A stretch of 57,603 nt of DNA from a virus (Duplodnaviria > Caudoviricetes): the IMG/VR virus record IMGVR_UViG_3300041809_000885, positions 1 through 57,603 of that record; one strand, 5' to 3'. Made by a program: the position numbers and the translations under genes. Numbering within the stretch: the first letter of the stretch is position 1; every line of letters starts with the position of its first letter. Shown here piece after piece: positions 1-13,058 of the stretch. Under the pieces are notes generated by a model. That model saw nothing but the letters and a program-made list of their open reading frames with translations, was not told where the DNA came from and did no database searches.

Positions 1-234
1 CGCGCCACGAAGGTCCGCGCCACGAAGGTCCGCGCCACCAAGGTACGCGCCACCAAGGTACGCGCCACGAAGGTCCGCGCCACGAAGGTCCGCGCCACCA
101 AGGTACGCGCCACGAAGGTTCGCGCCACCAAGGTTCGCGCCACGAAGGTCCGCGCCACCAAGGTACGCGCCACGAAGGTTCGCGCCACCAAGGTTCGCGC
201 CACGAAGGTTCGCGCCACCAAGGTTCGCGCCACC
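1..234. repeat. Tandem 15-bp repeat CGCGCCACSAAGGTH (15 full copies plus a partial), coding the pentapeptide repeat
   Basis: Read directly; each unit is 5 codons on the minus strand. Confidence 0.97.
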
Positions 235-327
235 GTTTACGGCCTCGGTTAACGCGTCTTTGAGGTTAGTTGCGCGATCGGATTTGAACAGGTCGGCGCC
301 GTTGCGGTGTTTCACGAAATAAGTCAT
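1..327 (-). CDS. Pentapeptide repeat protein, 3'-truncated by the window edge (not in the ORF track)
   Basis: ATG at 327 with upstream GAGGA; reads MTYFVKHRNGADLFKSDRATNLKDALTEAVNGG then A(N/D/Y)L(G/R)G repeats, open to position 1. Confidence 0.9.
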   Translation of the reverse strand, partial: MTYFVKHRNGADLFKSDRATNLKDALTEAVNGGANLGGANLRGANLGGANLRGAYLGGADLRGANLGGANLRGAYLGGADLRGADLRGAYLGGAYLGGADLRGADLRGA

Positions 328-6646: not shown

Positions 6647-6852
6647 CCGACGTTCACGCTCCCGATCTCTGGCCGCAACGCCGTCCCGCGATGTACACGC
6701 CGGAACGCGATGCTTTCCTGCGGGACAACCGCGACGTGCCGGTGGCGATACTGTCCTACAAGATGAATCTGAGCGAGACGTTCATCAAGCGCTACCAGCG
6801 CAAGCTTGGAATTCGCAAATTGACCGGCAACAAGCCGAGAAAGTCCAGATGA
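6643..6852 (+). CDS. Small basic protein, possible HTH
   Basis: ATGA overlaps on both sides. Confidence 0.6.
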   Translation: MTDVHAPDLWPQRRPAMYTPERDAFLRDNRDVPVAILSYKMNLSETFIKRYQRKLGIRKLTGNKPRKSR

Positions 6853-7841
6853 AGGTCGCGGCAATTACAACCACGATACATATTCCGGCGGTTCTGAAAC
6901 TGCTTCGTCAGTGTTCGGCTGACGTCGGGATGTTCGTGGCAATCGAGCAAGTACCTGACAAGAAGTTATTGGATTGTTGCCATGAGGCCGGCGCGACGGT
7001 TGTGTTAGGCGAGAACTGGAAGTGTTCCGAGGCGATTGGCTGGCACACCTTGAGTCGCAGGAATATCGCTTTCCTTGAAGCCTTGAAGCAAGGAGCGGAA
7101 ATAATATACTCGTTCGATACCGACAACATTCCGATGTCGCTGACGCACTTCGATTCGATTGAGAAAATTCTGACCGAGCGCTTCGACGGAATTCTCGCTT
7201 CCAGCAAGACCGGGTGGTTCGATGCCGGCCAGATGTTGAACCCTTGGGCCCGACACCGCGGCATTCCCTACAGCAACATCCCGGCGCACCACTACGATAT
7301 AGCGACCAACTTCCGCGCCGGTATCGCGGCAGGCCTCGTGATCGGCAATCCGGATATTGACGCCACGCTGCGGATGGAGAAGGCGCCGGAGATTCATACT
7401 ATCTCGAAGCTTGGCGAGATGGGGGTGCTGGTCGACGTCAACACCCACACCGTTTTCAATACGCAAAACGTAGCTATGTTGCGCGAACTGGTGCCTGCGT
7501 GGTTTCTCATGCCGCATGTCGGCAGGTACGACGATCTGTACGCCAGCTTAATCGTGCAGCGTGTGGCGCGCGAGCGCGGCCTGCATGTCCATTTCGGCCA
7601 GCCGCTGGTGTGGCAACAGCGTCATCAGCACGACCTGATCGTTGACCTCAAGGCCGAGATTGACGGCATGTCCCATATCAAGGACATAGCCGAGCTACTG
7701 GATCACATCCCGCTGCCCGGCAAGAGTGTCCTCGAGGATACGCGGATCATCTACACGACGCTGGAACACTGCGCGTGGCTGCCGGACGAGGCGATCTACG
7801 CGGCGCATAAATGGCTGGATGACGTAGAGGAGGTGATATGA
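6849..7841 (+). CDS. STELLO/GT75 (RGP)-like glycosyltransferase or nucleotide-sugar mutase
   Basis: ITTTI, RRNIAFLEA..GAEIIYSFDTDN (DxD), FNTQN, RYDDLYAS motifs. Confidence 0.7.
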   Translation: MKVAAITTTIHIPAVLKLLRQCSADVGMFVAIEQVPDKKLLDCCHEAGATVVLGENWKCSEAIGWHTLSRRNIAFLEALKQGAEIIYSFDTDNIPMSLTHFDSIEKILTERFDGILASSKTGWFDAGQMLNPWARHRGIPYSNIPAHHYDIATNFRAGIAAGLVIGNPDIDATLRMEKAPEIHTISKLGEMGVLVDVNTHTVFNTQNVAMLRELVPAWFLMPHVGRYDDLYASLIVQRVARERGLHVHFGQPLVWQQRHQHDLIVDLKAEIDGMSHIKDIAELLDHIPLPGKSVLEDTRIIYTTLEHCAWLPDEAIYAAHKWLDDVEEVI

Positions 7842-7949
7842 AAGTGATTATCAACAAGCAGGAAGGATACTCACCGTACCTTTATATTCATGCTTATCCG
7901 GTTAACGCACACAAACGCTGAGACCTACTAGATATTGATGGGACAATCG

Positions 7950-8129
7950 ATGACGGAATTAGAGGCGCTGACCAATGAAATCGACGCGCACGTTTCTCGC
8001 AATTCCGATCTGGAACTTTCAACACTCCACTTGAGCGCACGAACCGCACAAGCGTGGTGGCGGCTTCTCAAGGCTCTGCGGCCGGACAAATGTCGCGTAA
8101 ATGCGACGGATCAGTCTGAAACAGGCTAA
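7950..8129 (+). CDS. Cassette 1 passenger, hypothetical
   Basis: Short ORF just inside the left end; alternative start at 7938. Confidence 0.5.
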   Translation: MTELEALTNEIDAHVSRNSDLELSTLHLSARTAQAWWRLLKALRPDKCRVNATDQSETG

Positions 8130-8144
8130 ATATAGGAGAGACAA

Positions 8145-8486
8145 ATGAAACTCTACATTTCGGAACCGGAACTGAAAGAAGGCTGTCACGTCGGACAAAT
8201 CCTTGTCCACGACGATGAAAACAATGACATTGCCTATTTCTTACACAATGAAGATGCGACTGTCCCACAGAGCTACGAAACCGCGCTTGCGATGGCGCGA
8301 GCACTGGTTAACGCAGAGGAATACCGTACCGCCCTGATACACATTAGAGGCTCATATACCCCAGATCAACCGGCAGATAGCGCGGCTGATGAGGTTTCGT
8401 GGGTGATGCGACACGTCGGAGGCTTACGCAGGGTAGCAGCTAACGCCTTAGATCATCTGGGCATTCTTGGAGAGAAAAATGTCTGA
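8145..8486 (+). CDS. Cassette 1 passenger, hypothetical
   Basis: 113 aa, AGGAGA RBS. Confidence 0.8.
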   Translation: MKLYISEPELKEGCHVGQILVHDDENNDIAYFLHNEDATVPQSYETALAMARALVNAEEYRTALIHIRGSYTPDQPADSAADEVSWVMRHVGGLRRVAANALDHLGILGEKNV

Positions 8487-8673
8487 AGCAATGCAATTCA
8501 CTAACGGACTCACGCATGCCCAAGACGACGAGATTGACAATGTGATGATCGATCTTGTTCGGATCGTTGACAGGATCGACCGCATTGGCATTCATCGCAA
8601 CTATTCGCTCGCCATTACCAAGATCGAAGAAGCAAAGCATTGGTTGCGCGACCGCAAGCACAAACCCGCGTAA
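8479..8673 (+). CDS. Cassette 1 passenger, Tad1/Acb2-like helical-hairpin protein (candidate anti-defence)
   Basis: C-terminal RNYSLAITKIEEAKHWLRDR resembles the recalled Tad1/Acb2 hairpin motif; GGAGAG RBS. Confidence 0.55.
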   Translation: MSEAMQFTNGLTHAQDDEIDNVMIDLVRIVDRIDRIGIHRNYSLAITKIEEAKHWLRDRKHKPA

Positions 8674-8848
8674 ATGCGCACCATGACCACAACATCTAGG
8701 GCCGTGTGTCTAAACCGGATAAGCATGTTTATATTAAAGCCGATGAGACGGCCTGTGAAACCACGACGATCGACGAATGGATAAGGATGCTACAATTAGG
8801 AAAGCATTGGCTGCGCCAACAGAAAAACAAAGCATCGAAGGCCAAGGC

Positions 8849-10087
8849 ATGAAATTAGCAATTGCGTTTTCGACAAAAGACCAGGTCGCGCTGACCGAGC
8901 AGACTTTGCCGTGGATTATGCACAGCGATATTGACATGTACTGGTGTGACGGTTCGCGCACCAACGAAGGCATTCGATTTTTCGAAGAGCATTCGGAAGG
9001 CGCATGCATGCTGAGCAGCGCCCGGGTCTTCGGCGGCGCTGATGCAGCAATCGCGTGGAAGCTGACCGTGTTGCTGAAGTCCAACGCGACCCACATCGGC
9101 CTTCTAGAAAACGACGTCCTGCTTGACGAGAACTGGTTTTCCCCCACTACGGAACTGTTCAAGCGGGGAGAGCAGGATGGCTTGCACGTTGGAGCAGTGT
9201 CTGCAAGATCTTACGTCGATCGTGTCCTCATCCAGCGAGACGGCTATGCCGTCATGCATAACATCGGAGCAGGATTTATTATTTTCACGCGAGAAGCCGC
9301 AGAGATCGTTCTTCGTTCATTCAGGACTTCATGGTGGCCAACCACTCGCTTGTTGTGGGCTCAGTTGTCCGGGATTGACGTAGCAACATACGCCGCCTTC
9401 CGCGGCAACGAGCAGTGGGTCACCACCGACTGGGGATGGGAAGCCCAGCTCGCCAGCCACGGGTTAGCCAGCCTCGCGCTCACTCCGGCGAAGTGTACCA
9501 TGATCGGGCAGAACCCGCCGCTGGAGCAGCAGGGATTGCAGTTGGTGACGTGGCCAGCTGTTTCCGGGCTAGTGAATGACCAGGCATTCGAGATCTATCG
9601 AGGTAACCTCCTCGCCATCCGCGCCGGCGTGCATCAGATCGAACTCCCTGGCACCATCCACCGCGACGGCGCCGGCATGCTTTTCTTTCCCCACCAACTC
9701 GGCAATCTGGCGGGAGGTGAACCGTGGCAAGGCAATTTGGAATTACAGTGGGCTCAGGGCTGGGGCCCGTTCGCCTACCGCGCTGGTCCGGGCGGCGCAT
9801 CTCTTTCCGTGCGCATCTCTGGTTCCTGCTCCTTCCACGTCACTGGCGGGTCCACCGGCGCGAGGGCGGCTATAACGGACACCCGCTCTGGATTTAACTT
9901 CGCGCCGGACTTGCCCGGCGGCATGCAGCAGTTCGGCTCGATCAACGTGCCGGGCGGCCCGGTGCCGCGGCAAATCACGATGGAGATGAGCGAAGGCGCG
10001 GTGTTCTACGGGCTGCAGACCGCCGACCCGCAGCTGCTTGATACGACGTTCAGGTTCGACTGGTCGCAATTGCCGGAGGCGAAGTGA
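8849..10087 (+). CDS. GT-A fold (GT2-like) glycosyltransferase with extra C-terminal domain
   Basis: MKLAIAFST..., CDGS, LLENDVLL; likely start 8849 by ATGA coupling. Confidence 0.7.
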   Translation: MKLAIAFSTKDQVALTEQTLPWIMHSDIDMYWCDGSRTNEGIRFFEEHSEGACMLSSARVFGGADAAIAWKLTVLLKSNATHIGLLENDVLLDENWFSPTTELFKRGEQDGLHVGAVSARSYVDRVLIQRDGYAVMHNIGAGFIIFTREAAEIVLRSFRTSWWPTTRLLWAQLSGIDVATYAAFRGNEQWVTTDWGWEAQLASHGLASLALTPAKCTMIGQNPPLEQQGLQLVTWPAVSGLVNDQAFEIYRGNLLAIRAGVHQIELPGTIHRDGAGMLFFPHQLGNLAGGEPWQGNLELQWAQGWGPFAYRAGPGGASLSVRISGSCSFHVTGGSTGARAAITDTRSGFNFAPDLPGGMQQFGSINVPGGPVPRQITMEMSEGAVFYGLQTADPQLLDTTFRFDWSQLPEAK

Positions 10088-10647
10088 TGCCTGCGCGAAA
10101 TCAAGTTTTGCGTATGTGTCGTTGCCAAGAAGAGTTTTCAGTTATGGCCTATATGGGGGCTAAGCGAAAATTTTGTTCGCCGCAATGCCATATTGATTTT
10201 GTGCGAGCCACAAATAAAACTCCCGAGCAGAAATTTGAGGAGTACCACATTCCCGAACCTAATTCGGGATGCTGGCTTTGGTTAGGTTGCCTTGACGGAA
10301 AGAACTACGGAATTCTTAGTATCAAGCGACGAAATGTTTACGCGCACAGGTTTTCTTATGTTAAAAAATATGGAGCGATCCCGGCCGGCAAGGAATTAGA
10401 TCACACTTGTCGAAATACATTTTGCTGTAATCCCGATCACGTTGAACCGGTTACGCACAGAGAAAACATGTTGCGAAGTCCGGTCACACTGGGAGGACGG
10501 CACGCTAGGAGAACACATTGTCCGCAAGGGCACGCATATGATTTGGAAAACACTTACGTCGGACCGTTGGGGACTCGTTTTTGTAAGGCGTGTCGTAGAG
10601 CTTTTGATAAGAAGCGCGGGCATGCCAGAGGAGTTAGGGCATCATGA
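10087..10647 (+). CDS. HNH homing endonuclease
   Basis: PEPNSGCWLW, LDHTCRNTFCCNPDHVEPVTHREN, THCPQGH..CKAC; AT-rich. Confidence 0.9.
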   Translation: MPARNQVLRMCRCQEEFSVMAYMGAKRKFCSPQCHIDFVRATNKTPEQKFEEYHIPEPNSGCWLWLGCLDGKNYGILSIKRRNVYAHRFSYVKKYGAIPAGKELDHTCRNTFCCNPDHVEPVTHRENMLRSPVTLGGRHARRTHCPQGHAYDLENTYVGPLGTRFCKACRRAFDKKRGHARGVRAS

Positions 10648-11642
10648 AAAAAGCTTTGGTGTTGGGCGCGAGCGGGTTCCTCGGCCAACATATGGAATAC
10701 CGACTCAAACAGGAAGGGTATTATGTCGTTTCTGTTGCGCGGCACGCGGCGCCTTATCGCAAAAGCGTAGCGAATGAAAATAACATACTTGATCTTACCA
10801 ACGAGGCTGGTTTTCACCACCATTTTTATCGGCATCACTTTGATGTGGTGTTTCAACTGGCCGGAAATGTTGGGGGTTTGGGACATATTGCTGTCGGCGA
10901 TAACGACGCAGCAATTTTAACAGATTCGCTGAAGATCAATCTTTATACGCTCGAAGCAATTCGGAAAACGCAGGCCGCTGAAAAAATACTGTTCGCGTCT
11001 TCTCAATGCGTCTACCCGGATACAATCGAAATTGATCCGTTTGCCTCCGAGCGAATCCCGGATCACGTTACGCAGCCGTGGCGCGAAAAAGATGCCAGCT
11101 TCGATACGTTTGCCTTCGGGCAAGAAAAATTATTTGCGGAAAAATTATACGACGCTTACGCTCGTAACTACGGGATCAACCCGAGAGTGGCGAGGTGCGG
11201 AAACACATACGGCCCGTTTTGTACTTACGACGGTGATCGTGCTAAATCTGTTGCCGCGATCTGTCGAAAAGTTGCAACAGCTCCTTATGCAGGAACGGTC
11301 AAGCTCTGGGGGGACGGAACGGCCCGACGATCTTTCACCTACGTCGACGACGTGATCGACGGCATGCTCAAGCTGATGGAATCCGACTATCAGGGTCCGG
11401 TCAATATCGCGCACGGCGAGACGGTGTCGATCGTCGAGCTGTTCGAGGCGGTGTGCCGGGCCGCCAACAAGGTACTGGCATGGGAGAGCGAGCCGGGGCC
11501 GGTCGGCGTGCATTCCCGCGGTTCCGACAACACCCTGGCGAGGAAGGTATTGGGCTGGGAGCCGAAGACGTCGCTGATGATGGGGTTGGCGGTCACGTAT
11601 CCGTGGGTGCGGGATCAGGCCTTGACGAAGGCCCCGGCTTGA
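10644..11642 (+). CDS. NAD-dependent epimerase, GDP-mannose 3,5-epimerase-like SDR
   Basis: GASGFLG, LAGNVGGLGHI, ASSQCVYP, WGDGTARRSFTYVDD; YxxxK appears as FGQEK. Confidence 0.85.
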   Translation: MKKALVLGASGFLGQHMEYRLKQEGYYVVSVARHAAPYRKSVANENNILDLTNEAGFHHHFYRHHFDVVFQLAGNVGGLGHIAVGDNDAAILTDSLKINLYTLEAIRKTQAAEKILFASSQCVYPDTIEIDPFASERIPDHVTQPWREKDASFDTFAFGQEKLFAEKLYDAYARNYGINPRVARCGNTYGPFCTYDGDRAKSVAAICRKVATAPYAGTVKLWGDGTARRSFTYVDDVIDGMLKLMESDYQGPVNIAHGETVSIVELFEAVCRAANKVLAWESEPGPVGVHSRGSDNTLARKVLGWEPKTSLMMGLAVTYPWVRDQALTKAPA

Positions 11643-11662
11643 GGTAGTCATTGTTGACTACC
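11622..11662 (+). promoter_or_regulatory. Promoter TTGACG-N17-TAGTCA overlapped by palindrome GGTAGTCA-TTGT-TGACTACC (11643-11662)
   Basis: Perfect 8-bp arms; followed by the GGGAGG RBS that originally served the recombinase. Confidence 0.65.
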
Positions 11663-11722
11663 AAGGGAGGATAACATGACATGCTTATCCGCTTCCCACA
11701 CACAAACGCTGAGGGATACTAG

Positions 11723-12058
11723 ATGTTGAGGACGCGCGATAAGTTGGCCGCTGAGCTTCGAAATGTTGCCGCAATAGCCTCGCCAGACAATGCGGCGAAG
11801 TATGAGGCTTTCGCGAAGCGCGCCGAGACTGGCGAGTTTGACGACTATGCCGACACCTATGTGTGTCCGATCACCCAACTCTATTCGGAACTAACCGCCG
11901 CAGGCTTCACCAAGTTTGCCGCCCGCGTCGCCAATGGCGAATTCGACGCCACGAAGGAAGAAAGTGACGAATGGGCACGTAGCCCATCTGGGCAGGACGC
12001 CGCAAAGCGGCTTCCGCCGGAAATGCGTGAGATTTTAGGTCTGAAACTCAACAACTAG
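11723..12058 (+). CDS. Cassette 2 passenger, hypothetical with internal GEFD repeat
   Basis: 111 aa; start lies inside the conserved left end (GAGGGA RBS). Confidence 0.8.
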   Translation: MLRTRDKLAAELRNVAAIASPDNAAKYEAFAKRAETGEFDDYADTYVCPITQLYSELTAAGFTKFAARVANGEFDATKEESDEWARSPSGQDAAKRLPPEMREILGLKLNN

Positions 12059-12068
12059 GAGAACCGCA

Positions 12069-12308
12069 ATGCCGCCAGAGATCAGCAACCAAGAAGCTAT
12101 CGAAATGATGAACCGCTGCAAGCAAGAGATTGTTGGCATGCGGGCAACAATCGATCGCCTCAAGCCCAAAGCCGATGCTTATGACAATCTCGTTGTCGTG
12201 CTGGGCCTGCTGCCACGCCCGAGCATCGGCATGGGCGAGGATTTGGTTTGGATCATCGACAAGCGAATTCGGGAATTGACACCGAAACCGGCTGAGAACG
12301 CGGATTGA
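12069..12308 (+). CDS. Cassette 2 passenger, small coiled-coil protein
   Basis: 79 aa, AGGAGA RBS. Confidence 0.75.
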   Translation: MPPEISNQEAIEMMNRCKQEIVGMRATIDRLKPKADAYDNLVVVLGLLPRPSIGMGEDLVWIIDKRIRELTPKPAENAD

Positions 12309-12359
12309 ACATGACCACAACACTTAGGGCTGTATGTCCTAACCGGATAAGCATGTAAC

Positions 12360-13058
12360 ATGATTCTTGCCTACATCAGGGTTTCGACAGCGGATCAGGC
12401 CAATGCCGATCGCTCCAGTTTGCAAACCCAAACCGATATCGTGGAAGGTTTCGCTCGAGCCCGAGGCGTTGATCGATTCGGCATTCAGATTTACACCGAT
12501 GCCGGGGTGTCCGGCGGGGTCAAGCTGTCCAAGCGAGAGGCCGGCGCCCAGCTGCTGGCCGACATGGCGCCGGGCGACACCGTGATCGCCAGCAAGCTCG
12601 ATCGCATGTTCCGTTCCGCCGTTGATGCGCTCAACATGCTGGAGTTGTTCAAGGAGAAGGGTGTCCATCTCGTGCTTTACGATATGGGGCACGAACCCGT
12701 GACCGGCGAGGGCACTGCCCGCCTACTGTTCACCATCCTGGCCGCTGTCGCCGACATGGAACGGATCAGGATCCGCGAGCGCACCGCCGAGGGCCGCAAG
12801 GCCAAGAAGGCGAGGGGCGGGCCGGTCGGCAATGTCCCGTTCGGTTTCCGGAAGGTCGGGGAGGGGCGAGCAGCCTGCTTGGTTCCCAATGACAGCGAAG
12901 TACAGGCAGCTGCGAAGATGCGGCAGCTATACCAGAAAGAAGGCCTGATCGGCACGTCGCGTAAGCTGGCCGAGGCCGGAATATTGTCGCGGGCCGGCAA
13001 ACCCTTCACGCCGATGGCGATCCGGCGAGTGGTGTTGGAGGCCGTCAATGCAGTTTAA
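12360..13058 (+). CDS. Serine recombinase (resolvase/invertase catalytic domain plus short C-terminal recombinase-type domain)
   Basis: AYIRVST, DAGVSG, SKLDRMFRS, ERIRIRERTAEG, PFGF. Confidence 0.93.
   Translation: MILAYIRVSTADQANADRSSLQTQTDIVEGFARARGVDRFGIQIYTDAGVSGGVKLSKREAGAQLLADMAPGDTVIASKLDRMFRSAVDALNMLELFKEKGVHLVLYDMGHEPVTGEGTARLLFTILAAVADMERIRIRERTAEGRKAKKARGGPVGNVPFGFRKVGEGRAACLVPNDSEVQAAAKMRQLYQKEGLIGTSRKLAEAGILSRAGKPFTPMAIRRVVLEAVNAV

Follow-up and report, generated by a model that had tools for sequence, protein, structure and literature searches.

Two segments of the analysed window, which comprises the complete 57,603-bp viral record, are very likely non-autonomous cassettes of the IS1595 family inserted by a transposase acting in trans; the trans-mobilisation itself is inferred. 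Each of these segments, designated E1 and E2, would represent a mobile insertion cassette in which transposase-recognised ends of about 50 nt on the left and about 46 nt on the right surround two or three small accessory genes. In the proposed mechanism a DDE transposase supplied in trans would insert the cassettes through a staggered cut 8 bp apart at an AT-rich target (nWWnnWWn), whereby those 8 bp would be duplicated. The most likely supplier would be the 349-aa zinc-ribbon and DDE protein of autonomous relatives, 1.4-2.8 kb in size, with the same 15-nt tips, and the home of the lineage would be mainly uncultured tailed phages, probably of Alphaproteobacteria.

Anatomy of the two cassettes

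A 12-nt perfect terminal inverted repeat is common to E1 and E2 and runs on imperfectly to about 25 nt, with a further inverted block, similar to CTAGATGTTG, some 40 nt inside each tip. The 12-mer CATGCTTATCCG is present in exactly four copies in the 57,603-bp record, two forward and two reverse, all of which are the tips of E1 and E2; the reversed-pattern control gave no matches in this record. The left ends (7889-7938 and 11680-11729) are identical at 42 of 50 positions, or 84% over 50 nt, and the right ends show 87% identity over 47 nt (8682-8728 and 12310-12356). Each element has its own perfect 8-bp duplication. The interiors, three ORFs in E1 and two in E2, are unrelated and nearly all coding, and are located on the + strand, the same as the flanking genes. 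Coordinates of all features are given in Table 1.

Table 1. Coordinates of E1, E2, their cargo genes and the adjoining phage genes.
Feature	Position	Strand	Remarks
5' part of small phage ORF split by E1	7838..7888	+	3' part is 8736-8852
E1 left target-site duplication	7881..7888	no strand	TTTATATT, same 8-mer as 8728-8735
E1, non-autonomous IS1595-family cassette	7889..8727	+	839 bp; tips, inverted repeats, duplication
E1 conserved left (L-type) end	7889..7938	+	50 nt; in register with all 38 L-type ends
E1 cargo ORF1	7950..8129	+	59 aa; alternative start 7935; function unknown
E1 cargo ORF2	8145..8486	+	113 aa; function unknown
E1 cargo ORF3	8479..8673	+	64 aa; two-helix hairpin (predicted); weak Acb2/Tad1-like lead
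E1 conserved right (R-type) end	8682..8727	+	likeness to E2 right end
E1 right target-site duplication	8728..8735	no strand	TTTATATT
3' part of small phage ORF split by E1	8736..8852	+	same frame as 5' part after E1 removal
E2 left target-site duplication	11672..11679	no strand	TAACATGA
E2, non-autonomous IS1595-family cassette	11680..12355	+	676 bp; tips, inverted repeats, duplication
E2 left (L-type) end	11680..11729	+	nt 44-46 (11723-11725) are the start codon of E2 cargo ORF1
E2 cargo ORF1	11723..12058	+	111 aa; function unknown
E2 cargo ORF2	12069..12308	+	79 aa; function unknown; kept in E2-type copies of L053 and L061
E2 right (R-type) end	12310..12355	+	likeness to E1 right end
E2 right target-site duplication	12356..12363	no strand	TAACATGA; holds ATG of downstream gene
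Serine recombinase (resolvase) gene adjoining E2	12360..13058	+	Pfam Resolvase, E 4.5e-32

No match to DDE_Tnp_IS1595 (PF12762) was detected in the window at E <= 1, and neither the ORF list nor the domain search revealed a transposase remnant inside E1 or E2. Since they contain only small unrelated ORFs and the window has no PF12762 match, E1 and E2 should be considered derivatives rather than insertion sequences proper. With the completeness of the window rated at only about 90%, a transposase on the missing part cannot be excluded. The original prediction, made from sequence alone, had described two elements with shared ends, inverted repeats and their own 8-bp duplications, interiors of unrelated small genes oriented with the host operon, and no transposase in the window; all of this held. 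Classification as miniature inverted-repeat elements (MITEs) was ruled out, because coding sequence fills nearly all of E1 (839 bp) and E2 (676 bp).

Insertion sites

In silico removal of E1 together with one copy of the duplication places both parts of the interrupted ORF in one frame of 55 codons. The relative G002 carries at the same place an intact homologue of 53 codons, in which TTTATATT is present once, at the homologous codons, and thus represents the uninterrupted E1 site. Because the closest relative, G001, is devoid of the small ORF, the precise uninterrupted site is known from G002 only. The uninterrupted E2 site is seen in L187, L189 and L195, where the epimerase-resolvase junction is intact, and none of the eight relatives examined has IS tips. 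All eight possess the resolvase gene without any IS tips; the resolvase beside E2 is a phage gene located outside the element. Empty-site alleles in relatives, one of the checks suggested with the original prediction, were therefore found for both cassettes, as were other loci with the same ends, on many viral contigs with 8-bp duplications.

A family of cassettes in viral genomes

A scan of the viral collection with a 24-nt tip pattern revealed at least 118 matching stretches. A total of 67 unique duplication-flanked viral elements were recognised, including E1 and E2 and hence at least 65 further ones; 56 are transposase-less cassettes versus 11 autonomous copies. Identical 8-nt flanks were found at 71 of the 159 tip pairs in the fetched loci, compared with none of 159 in an offset control, in which the compared 8-mers were shifted by 8 nt. 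On the basis of this family-wide control, the duplications of E1 and E2 are beyond chance. The duplications are 70% A+T, versus 43% in the flanks, and their positions 2, 3, 6 and 7 are W in 82-84% of cases, corresponding to the pattern nWWnnWWn. The cargo is diverse, with 93 clusters among 119 ORFs, so that the predicted combination of fixed ends with variable accessory cargo held. At some loci the cassettes stand in tandem. The same tips also bound non-coding MITEs of 168-223 bp in metagenome-assembled genomes (MAGs) of Desulfobacteraceae.

The E2-type cassette occurs at three unrelated sites, each time with a different duplication and without a transposase. E2 is 92% identical to the copy at L053:1779-2455 and 82% identical to that at L061:10806-11477, the flanks of these copies being only 28-39% alike, and homology ends exactly at the tips.

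An alternative interpretation is that the ends are regulatory or site-specific recombination sites, such as integron-attC-like sites or promoter and terminator modules, and that the flanking 8-mers are coincidental. The translation signals in the left end (see below), the tandem arrangement of some cassettes and the report of integron cassettes in phages (PMC9892861) speak for it. Against it stand the frequency of identical flanks relative to the offset control, the loss of homology between copies exactly at the tips, the presence of the same ends on elements encoding a DDE transposase, and the lack of promoter-like or terminator-like sites, none being found on the + strand within E1 or E2. 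Moreover, the adjoining recombinase is a serine resolvase that is kept in relatives without the elements. This interpretation can practically be dismissed. Integron gene cassettes in particular were ruled out by the duplications and the adjacent serine resolvase, attC structure not being among the features examined.

Autonomous relatives and the transposase

Members of the family of 1.6-2.3 kb with the same tips encode a 349-aa IS1595-family transposase in addition to passenger genes. In all four long-element proteins scanned (349-366 aa), DDE_Tnp_IS1595 was identified with E values of 7e-32 to 8e-35, and an N-terminal zinc ribbon, Zn_ribbon_IS1595 / Zn_Tnp_IS1595 (PF12760), with 1e-9 to 2e-13. 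The predicted assignment to the IS1595 family thus held, and an IS1595 transposase, suggested as a further check in related phages, was found in these elements with the same tips. In the transposase alignment the D, D and H/D positions are conserved; the third catalytic position is H, followed by six residues and then K, and there is also an E-x3-R-x2-R motif. The ISSod11 group of IS1595 is characterised by nnnGCnTATC ends and a DDHK-type catalytic signature. The tip CATGCTTATC of E1 and E2 fits this end consensus; the suggested placement in the ISSod11 group is tentative and rests only on the consensus and the catalytic signature.

Autonomous copies with duplications were found at 11 viral loci (1,567-2,265 bp, the transposase gene being split in one) and 12 MAG loci (1,411-2,845 bp, two being the same insertion), and every one of them carries passengers. 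Among 50,697 GenBank phage records there were two distant matches to the 349-aa transposase, both with at most 27% identity. Distant chromosomal relatives in Bryobacterales MAGs are plain insertion sequences of 1,038-1,052 bp with near-identical tips, whose transposases share 39-41% identity with it (three aligned) and which target AGnnnnCT.

The cassette ends agree with those of the 349-aa elements in their first 15 nt and in the CACAYAC block; past about nt 25 the L- and R-type ends diverge from those of autonomous elements. No autonomous element with L/R-type ends was present among the loci fetched; consequently the 349-aa clade is the best candidate for the mobilising enzyme, whose identity is inferred, and its cognate status remains unproven. 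In L036, L053, L066 and L111 a few kb separate an autonomous element from a cassette, and both kinds also occur in G004, whose 63.6-kb record has terminal repeats and is rated 100% complete. PF12762 had no match in 9 of 15 further cassette-bearing viral records, six of these nine being rated 100% complete. Mobilisation in trans is inferred from the lack of an IS1595 transposase domain in these nine records and in the window, with further indirect support from the E2-type cassette at three sites. As no transposition was observed, this part of the original prediction has genomic support only and is not demonstrated.

It is unlikely, if possible, that the cassettes, while truly transposable, are moved by a different transposase, from another IS1595 lineage or the host, and not by the 349-aa clade. 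The cassette-bearing records G006, G008 and G009 contain further IS1595-family genes, which encode 303-331 aa and share 26-30% identity with the 349-aa clade; the one in G006 lies about 750 bp from an L-type cassette. Moreover, the inner parts of the cassette ends are unlike autonomous ends. However, the 303-331-aa genes are not flanked by CATGCTTATCCG tips or duplications. It is the 349-aa elements whose ends the cassettes match in the outermost 15 nt and the CACAYAC block, with which they share 8-bp AT-rich duplications, and beside which they are found at four loci.

According to another scenario, E1 and E2 were autonomous IS1595 elements with passenger genes when they inserted, lost the transposase in place and never moved as cassettes. 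Deletion derivatives do arise: L028:8061-9225 contains between the ends an 84-aa fusion of the N and C termini of the transposase, a deletion intermediate, and in L008 the transposase gene is split into 307-aa and 51-aa pieces. Nevertheless, E1 and E2 have no such remnant, the transposase-less E2-type cassette occupies three unrelated sites with its own duplication at each, and a single 50-nt sequence, unlike the autonomous left end, is common to all 38 L-type left ends. This shared, in-register end points to a self-propagating cassette lineage and renders in-place loss very improbable.

Left end, orientation and expression of cargo

The 38 L-type left ends align in register without exception, with conservation reaching nt 50. 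TGA at position 31, TAG at 41, ATG at 44 and TGA at 48 are all present in 21 of the 38; ATG44 occurs in 31, and in 22 of these it is the start of an ORF of 45 aa or more. The first cargo gene thus often starts at an ATG inside the conserved left end, although nt 44-46 of E1 are ATA rather than ATG. The conserved left end therefore has stop codons in every frame ahead of an ATG at which the first cargo gene often begins.

The elements are mostly oriented with the surrounding genes, 71 flanking genes being co-oriented and 5 opposed; where genes were called on both sides (27 elements), 24 are co-oriented, none opposed and 3 mixed. These counts were obtained with a simple codon-usage gene caller trained on the window, which gave the wrong strand for at least one transposase (L066). 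Considering the co-orientation, the lack of a promoter-like site of their own, and the stops and ATG, the cargo is probably expressed by read-through transcription and re-initiated translation, a mode of expression that is inferred.

Cargo genes of E1 and E2

E1 ORF1 matched nothing in Pfam below E 0.05 and nothing in PHROG at E <= 0.01. The closest homologue of E1 ORF2 (74% aa identity) is encoded by another viral contig, L284, with no IS tips within 2 kb of it; none of the four loci with ORF2 homologues showed a duplication-flanked element around the gene, and the search yielded no further copy of the E1 cassette. E1 ORF3 matches the Pfam family Acb2_Tad1_hairpin with E 1.1e-3 and 19.5 bits, under the 27-bit cut-off, and its profile, built from nine homologues, hit PDB sequences of Tad1 chains with E 0.14-0.15 and an Acb2 homologue with E 1. 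The structure model (pLDDT 84) predicts helices at residues 13-36 and 40-61, and a fold search with this model gave no significant match. A homologue of E2 ORF1 is gene 119 of Rhodobacter phage RcTiptonus (69% nt identity), an ordinary operon gene with overlapping neighbours and without IS ends. Any benefit provided by the cargo is inferred.

Comparison with known systems

E1 and E2 represent a variant, resident in phages, of IS1595 passenger elements and mobile insertion cassettes, apparently belonging to an undescribed family, no description of which was found in the literature searched. The IS1595 family, including 'transporter IS' with passenger genes (Siguier, Gagnevin and Chandler 2009, as referenced in PMC3129680 and PMC8101967), is characterised by 8-bp duplications and terminal inverted repeats, its transposase combining an N-terminal zinc ribbon with a DDE_Tnp_IS1595 domain (PMC8101967), and the presence of passenger genes next to the transposase makes IS and transposons harder to tell apart (PMC3129680). 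All these features are found in the phage lineage, which differs by residing in phage genomes, by passengers in all duplication-flanked autonomous copies found, by cassettes outnumbering autonomous copies, and by the target nWWnnWWn instead of the AGnnnnCT of chromosomal relatives.

Mobile insertion cassettes consist of IS ends around one or more passenger genes without a transposase, and can be activated if the cell contains a cognate transposase (PMC3129680). E1 and E2 share this arrangement of ends and passengers. Unlike MIC231 of IS231 from the Bacillus cereus group (De Palmenaer et al. 2004, as referenced in PMC3129680), which belongs to the IS4/IS231 family, they are IS1595 elements hosted by phage genomes; the phage cassettes also have far more diverse cargo, a left end supplying stops and a start codon, and strong co-orientation with host operons. 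With MITEs, including viral ones, they share a non-autonomous nature, inverted repeats at the borders and, by inference, the need for a transposase from elsewhere, but MITEs are non-coding. A survey of viral MITEs (Nadal-Molero et al. 2024, PMC11602168) detected them in only 0.01% of viral sequences and noted that IS are rare in phages, whereas the cassette family alone accounts for the viral stretches counted above. The mycobacteriophage elements MPME1/2 are likewise small, phage-specific and recognised through filled and empty sites in relatives, but MPME1 is a single 439-bp element type with an unexplained 6-bp sequence added at insertion (PMC3029335), in contrast to the 8-bp duplication, known transposase family and variable cargo seen here. 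Integron cassettes resemble the phage cassettes in that conserved boundaries enclose exchangeable genes without promoters of their own, which are expressed from outside and sometimes form arrays; they rely on integrase-mediated recombination at one attachment site, while the phage cassettes move by DDE transposition with duplications at many sites.

Possible significance

A bolder reading, taken as a whole, is that of a phage-borne, DDE-driven cassette system with an integron-like role, a portable left-end adaptor, arrays and inter-phage circulation of cargo; it is offered tentatively, as somewhat less likely than not. The 50-nt left end would then be a portable expression adaptor, halting the interrupted host frame in all three frames and restarting at its own ATG, so that any gene placed behind nt 50 could be expressed in any phage operon with no need for a promoter. 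Arrays of cassettes spaced by 8 bp would build up, and accessory and counter-defence genes, among them DNA methylases, NADAR and possible nucleotide sponges, would pass between unrelated phages during co-infection.

Transposable elements are held to be rare in phages, so the abundance of matching stretches, the complete genomes with autonomous copies and the dozens of cargo genes would indicate a previously unseen route of gene exchange, acting between phages beside recombination and homing endonucleases. The short ends and the 349-aa transposase could also make a compact tool for gene insertion into phage genomes. Since the cargo consists of dispensable, portable and presumably selected small phage genes, it may provide a shortlist for host-takeover and counter-defence functions.

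Structure of the cassettes and evidence for insertion

The window, a 57,603-bp whole viral record with a completeness rating of about 90%, contains two cassettes, E1 and E2, listed with other features in the table. The terminal 12-mer is confined to the four E1 and E2 tips in the whole record, and the reversed-pattern control gave no occurrence. Between the two cassettes, identity is 84% across 50 nt of the left ends and 87% across 47 nt of the right ends. The terminal inverted repeat continues imperfectly out to about 25 nt, and about 40 nt inward of each tip there is another inverted block, resembling CTAGATGTTG. TTTATATT is found on each side of E1, and TAACATGA on each side of E2. The interiors, containing three small ORFs in E1 and two in E2, all on the strand of the neighbouring genes, are unrelated to each other. 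A domain search of the whole record found no DDE_Tnp_IS1595 match.

Coordinates of the cassettes, neighbouring genes and related loci
Feature	Location	Remark
E1	7889-8727	starts with CATGCTTATCCG, ends with reverse complement of CATGCTTATCCG
E2	11680-12355	starts with CATGCTTATCCG, ends with reverse complement of CATGCTTATCCG
RGP-like glycosyltransferase	6849-7841	sugar-modification block
412-aa protein of unknown family	8849-10087	sugar-modification block
NAD-dependent epimerase/dehydratase	10644-11642	sugar-modification block
Tandem cassette loci	L100:3017-3026; L131:2899-3806; L161:1542-1551
Other IS1595-family genes	G006:C1:21846-22295; G008:C1:35401-35850; G009:C1 (four places)
Multi-copy chromosomal IS	L246-L275 (Bryobacterales MAGs), L226, L243	tips no more than 2 mismatches from phage elements

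Uninterrupted sites in relatives, together with E2-type cassettes at unrelated sites, are evidence that E1 and E2 are insertions. The E2 site is uninterrupted in three relatives (L187, L189 and L195), where a short spacer separates the epimerase stop codon from the resolvase ATG; the L187 resolvase is 88% identical to that of the window. IS tips are absent from all eight relatives examined. In the window, E2 lies between the ribosome-binding site and the ATG of the resolvase gene, and its duplication restores the ATG. Removal of E1 and one copy of its duplication joins 7838-7888 to 8736-8852 in a single frame of 55 codons, and an intact 53-codon homologue of this split ORF is found at the same place in the related viral record G002, with TTTATATT present once at the corresponding codons. 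The related record G001 lacks the small ORF, and the contig L185 has a different gene there. L185, the nearest relative found with the glycosyltransferase, was rejected as a precise empty site, having other genes at both sites. E2-type cassettes were identified in L053 (92% identical) and L061 (82%), each with its own duplication; their flanks are unrelated to those of E2 (28-39% alike), and homology stops exactly at the tips.

A script that joined the flanks of all fetched elements and searched the fetched loci returned three junction-spanning matches, only one of which may represent a true empty site, namely L115 against L010, where 127 nt are 81% identical and the match runs past the end of the locus. 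Only 11 of the 118 viral loci, which are partial contigs, share any ORF with the window, and most of these matches come from the terminal tandem repeat of the window or from E2 cargo. The record begins within this 15-bp repeat (window 1-240), which is open in several frames and gives spurious protein matches to other repetitive loci. Since the viral loci cover contigs only partly, no conclusion on host-phage diversity can be drawn.

The neighbourhood of E1 and E2 is a sugar-modification block (window 6849-11642), the synteny of which is kept in the relatives G001-G003 and L185. The window also contains an HNH endonuclease gene (10084-10647; Pfam HNH_3, E 9e-12). A contig of the public sequencing run X2 joins 10084 directly to 10642, and in relatives an HNH gene lies elsewhere: in L185 it is flanked by the epimerase and resolvase genes, and in G003 it is located upstream of the gene for the 412-aa protein. 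In this the gene behaves like a free-standing homing endonuclease.

Abundance and target preference of the family

A 24-nt degenerate tip pattern matched at least 118 stretches among the viral contigs. With two mismatches tolerated in the tips, the fetched loci and the window together yield 67 unique elements, 259-2,265 bp long, whose 8-nt flanks are identical. Among tip pairs lying 150-8,000 bp apart, 71 of 159 had identical 8-nt flanks, and none of the 159 did once the compared 8-mers were moved outward by 8 nt. The duplications contain 70% A+T, compared with 43% in flanks of the same genomes; A or T occupies positions 2, 3, 6 and 7 in 82-84% of cases, and the preference is symmetric.

Some cassettes are arranged in tandem, with exactly 8 bp from the right tip of one to the left tip of the next, a spacing observed in three of the four tip pairs within 60 nt of each other. 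In L131 one 8-mer is present left of, between and right of two different cassettes, and a contig of the soil run X2, placed at window 8727/7888, shows the same 8-bp tandem arrangement. This spacing could reflect cassette arrays built up as one cassette after another inserts into a resident duplication, and a relation to a junction intermediate is also conceivable.

Probable cognate transposase and its relatives

Elements of 1.6-2.3 kb bearing the same tips as E1 and E2 encode a 349-aa protein. All four proteins of this type scanned against Pfam contain DDE_Tnp_IS1595 (E 7e-32 to 8e-35) and Zn_ribbon_IS1595; these two domains and an 8-bp duplication are among the features of the IS1595 family (PMC8101967). 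In the transposase alignment, D, D and H/D positions are conserved and an E-x3-R-x2-R motif is present. Histidine at the third catalytic position and tips of the form nnnGCnTATC are marks of the ISSod11 group. In the usual autonomous layout the left end is followed by one to four passenger genes, the transposase gene, with its stop codon about 38 nt from the tip, and the right end; unlike this layout, L066 and L208 carry a passenger behind the transposase gene.

More than 120 cluster representatives, nearly all metagenomic, are at least 72% identical to the transposase. In a cellular search comprising one genome per species (185,579 species), only 11 loci reach 73% identity, all of them on MAG contigs, mostly of Alphaproteobacteria; ten have flanking duplications and span 1,411-1,831 bp, and an additional MAG relative with 64% identity spans 2,845 bp. 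The next relatives, with identity of 49% or less, are plain chromosomal IS present in multiple copies. Those of Bryobacterales and related MAGs are 1,038-1,052 bp long with near-identical tips, and their duplications follow AGnnnnCT (25 loci), in contrast to the AT-rich rule of the phage lineage. The 50,697 GenBank phage records yielded just two transposase matches, both with identity of 27% or less.

The MAG matches belong mostly to Hyphomicrobiales and other Alphaproteobacteria, and some of the MAG contigs are equal in length to viral records. A cassette in Rhodoplanes elegans DSM 11907 lies among phage-like genes, and Desulfobacteraceae MAGs contain non-coding MITEs of 168-223 bp with the same tips.

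Source of transposase in cassette-bearing phages

A PF12762 match is missing in nine of 15 further cassette-bearing viral records, six of these nine being rated 100% complete. Four records contain a 347-351-aa gene of the 349-aa clade, one has another lineage only, and one has a 62-aa remnant. In L036, L053, L066 and L111 an autonomous element and a cassette are no more than a few kb apart; the viral record G004, which has terminal repeats and is rated 100% complete, contains one of each, and in L028 the transposase gene has an internal deletion. With no transposase domain match in the window or in nine of the 15 records, and with cassettes and autonomous elements residing together in others, mobilisation in trans is the simplest reading, as the original prediction had proposed; this is an inference, and transposition was not observed.

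Other IS1595-family transposase genes are present in the cassette-bearing records G006, G008 and G009, the last with four IS1595-domain genes. They encode proteins of 303-331 aa, 26-30% identical to the 349-aa clade, and their surroundings yielded neither matching tips nor duplications.

Cargo genes

The 119 ORFs of 100 elements fall into 93 clusters. Few of the 114 scanned cargo ORFs have a Pfam family, namely N6/N4 DNA methylase (three), DUF1281_C (two), and NADAR, TnpB-like protein, C5 DNA methylase, DHHA1, radical SAM and antitoxin domain (one each); matches to 47 PHROG families were also obtained. The cargo of the duplication-flanked element L025:1253-2408 is a TnpB-like gene (367 aa; Pfam OrfB_IS605 and Cas12f1-like TNB), a case of one mobile-element gene carried inside another.

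The five cargo proteins of the window have no Pfam or PHROG assignment, apart from weak matches of E1 ORF3 (Pfam, E 1.1e-3; two unnamed PHROGs, E 0.002-0.004). The structural model of this protein is a confident two-helix hairpin, the likeness of which to the Acb2/Tad1 hairpin family is sub-threshold, and its membership in that family is on balance rather doubtful. A fold search with the model gave no matches at E <= 0.001 among the 33 listed; T4 Vs.4 (rank 7, E 5.7) was discarded as uninformative for a two-helix hairpin. In the protein atlas nothing usable was found for E2 ORF1, and E1 ORF2 had only matches scoring 0.81.

Cargo genes also occur as ordinary phage genes. A homologue of E2 ORF1 is gene 119 of Rhodobacter phage RcTiptonus, located inside an operon, and a homologue of E1 ORF2 in L284 has no tips nearby. 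None of four viral loci with E1 ORF2 homologues has a duplication-flanked element around the gene.

The C-terminus of the ORF split by E1 resembles that of E1 ORF3 (8479-8673). The 34-nt stretches 8631-8664 and 8798-8831 are 76% identical and both proteins contain a KHWLR motif; their global alignment is weak (score 13).

Left end, orientation and expression

The 38 L-type left ends all fit one gap-free alignment, with conservation to nt 50 and background thereafter. Stops at nt 31, 41 and 48, one per frame, and an ATG at nt 44 occur jointly in 21 of the 38; this ATG occurs in 31, and in 22 of these it begins an ORF of 45 aa or more. It is the start codon of E2 ORF1 (11723), and E1 has ATA in its place, its ORF1 beginning at a later start.

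The cargo strand deduced from the left-end motif agrees with that of a codon-usage caller in all 22 elements. The flank strands were taken from the same caller; a crude longest-ORF rule, which left most flanks uncalled, was dropped. Within 400 bp of the elements, 71 flanking genes are co-oriented and 5 opposed. Both flanks were called for 27 elements, and of these 24 are co-oriented, three mixed and none opposed (binomial p about 1e-7). The plus strand within E1 or E2 has no promoter-like or terminator-like site. The left end and orientation features are likely signs of adaptation to phage genomes, as inferred from sequence.

RNA-library contigs of run X4 (100% alike) cover parts of E1 and E2 cargo, and one of them extends across the E2 right end and on into the resolvase gene; carry-over of DNA into this library is not excluded. 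Peat, soil, wetland and lake runs gave small word shares only, which were not used as evidence, and uncovered parts in runs X2-X4 were not interpreted.

Comparison with known systems

IS1595 members with passenger genes, like mobile insertion cassettes, are already established as concepts (PMC3129680). The literature searched, which was incomplete, yielded no account of such elements or cassettes of the IS1595 family in phages; the supplementary tables of viral MITEs in PMC11602168 could include family members. What is probably new is a phage-resident lineage at such abundance, with a fixed left end providing stop and start codons, an orientation bias of the cassettes, broad cargo, and stacking of cassettes at 8-bp spacing.
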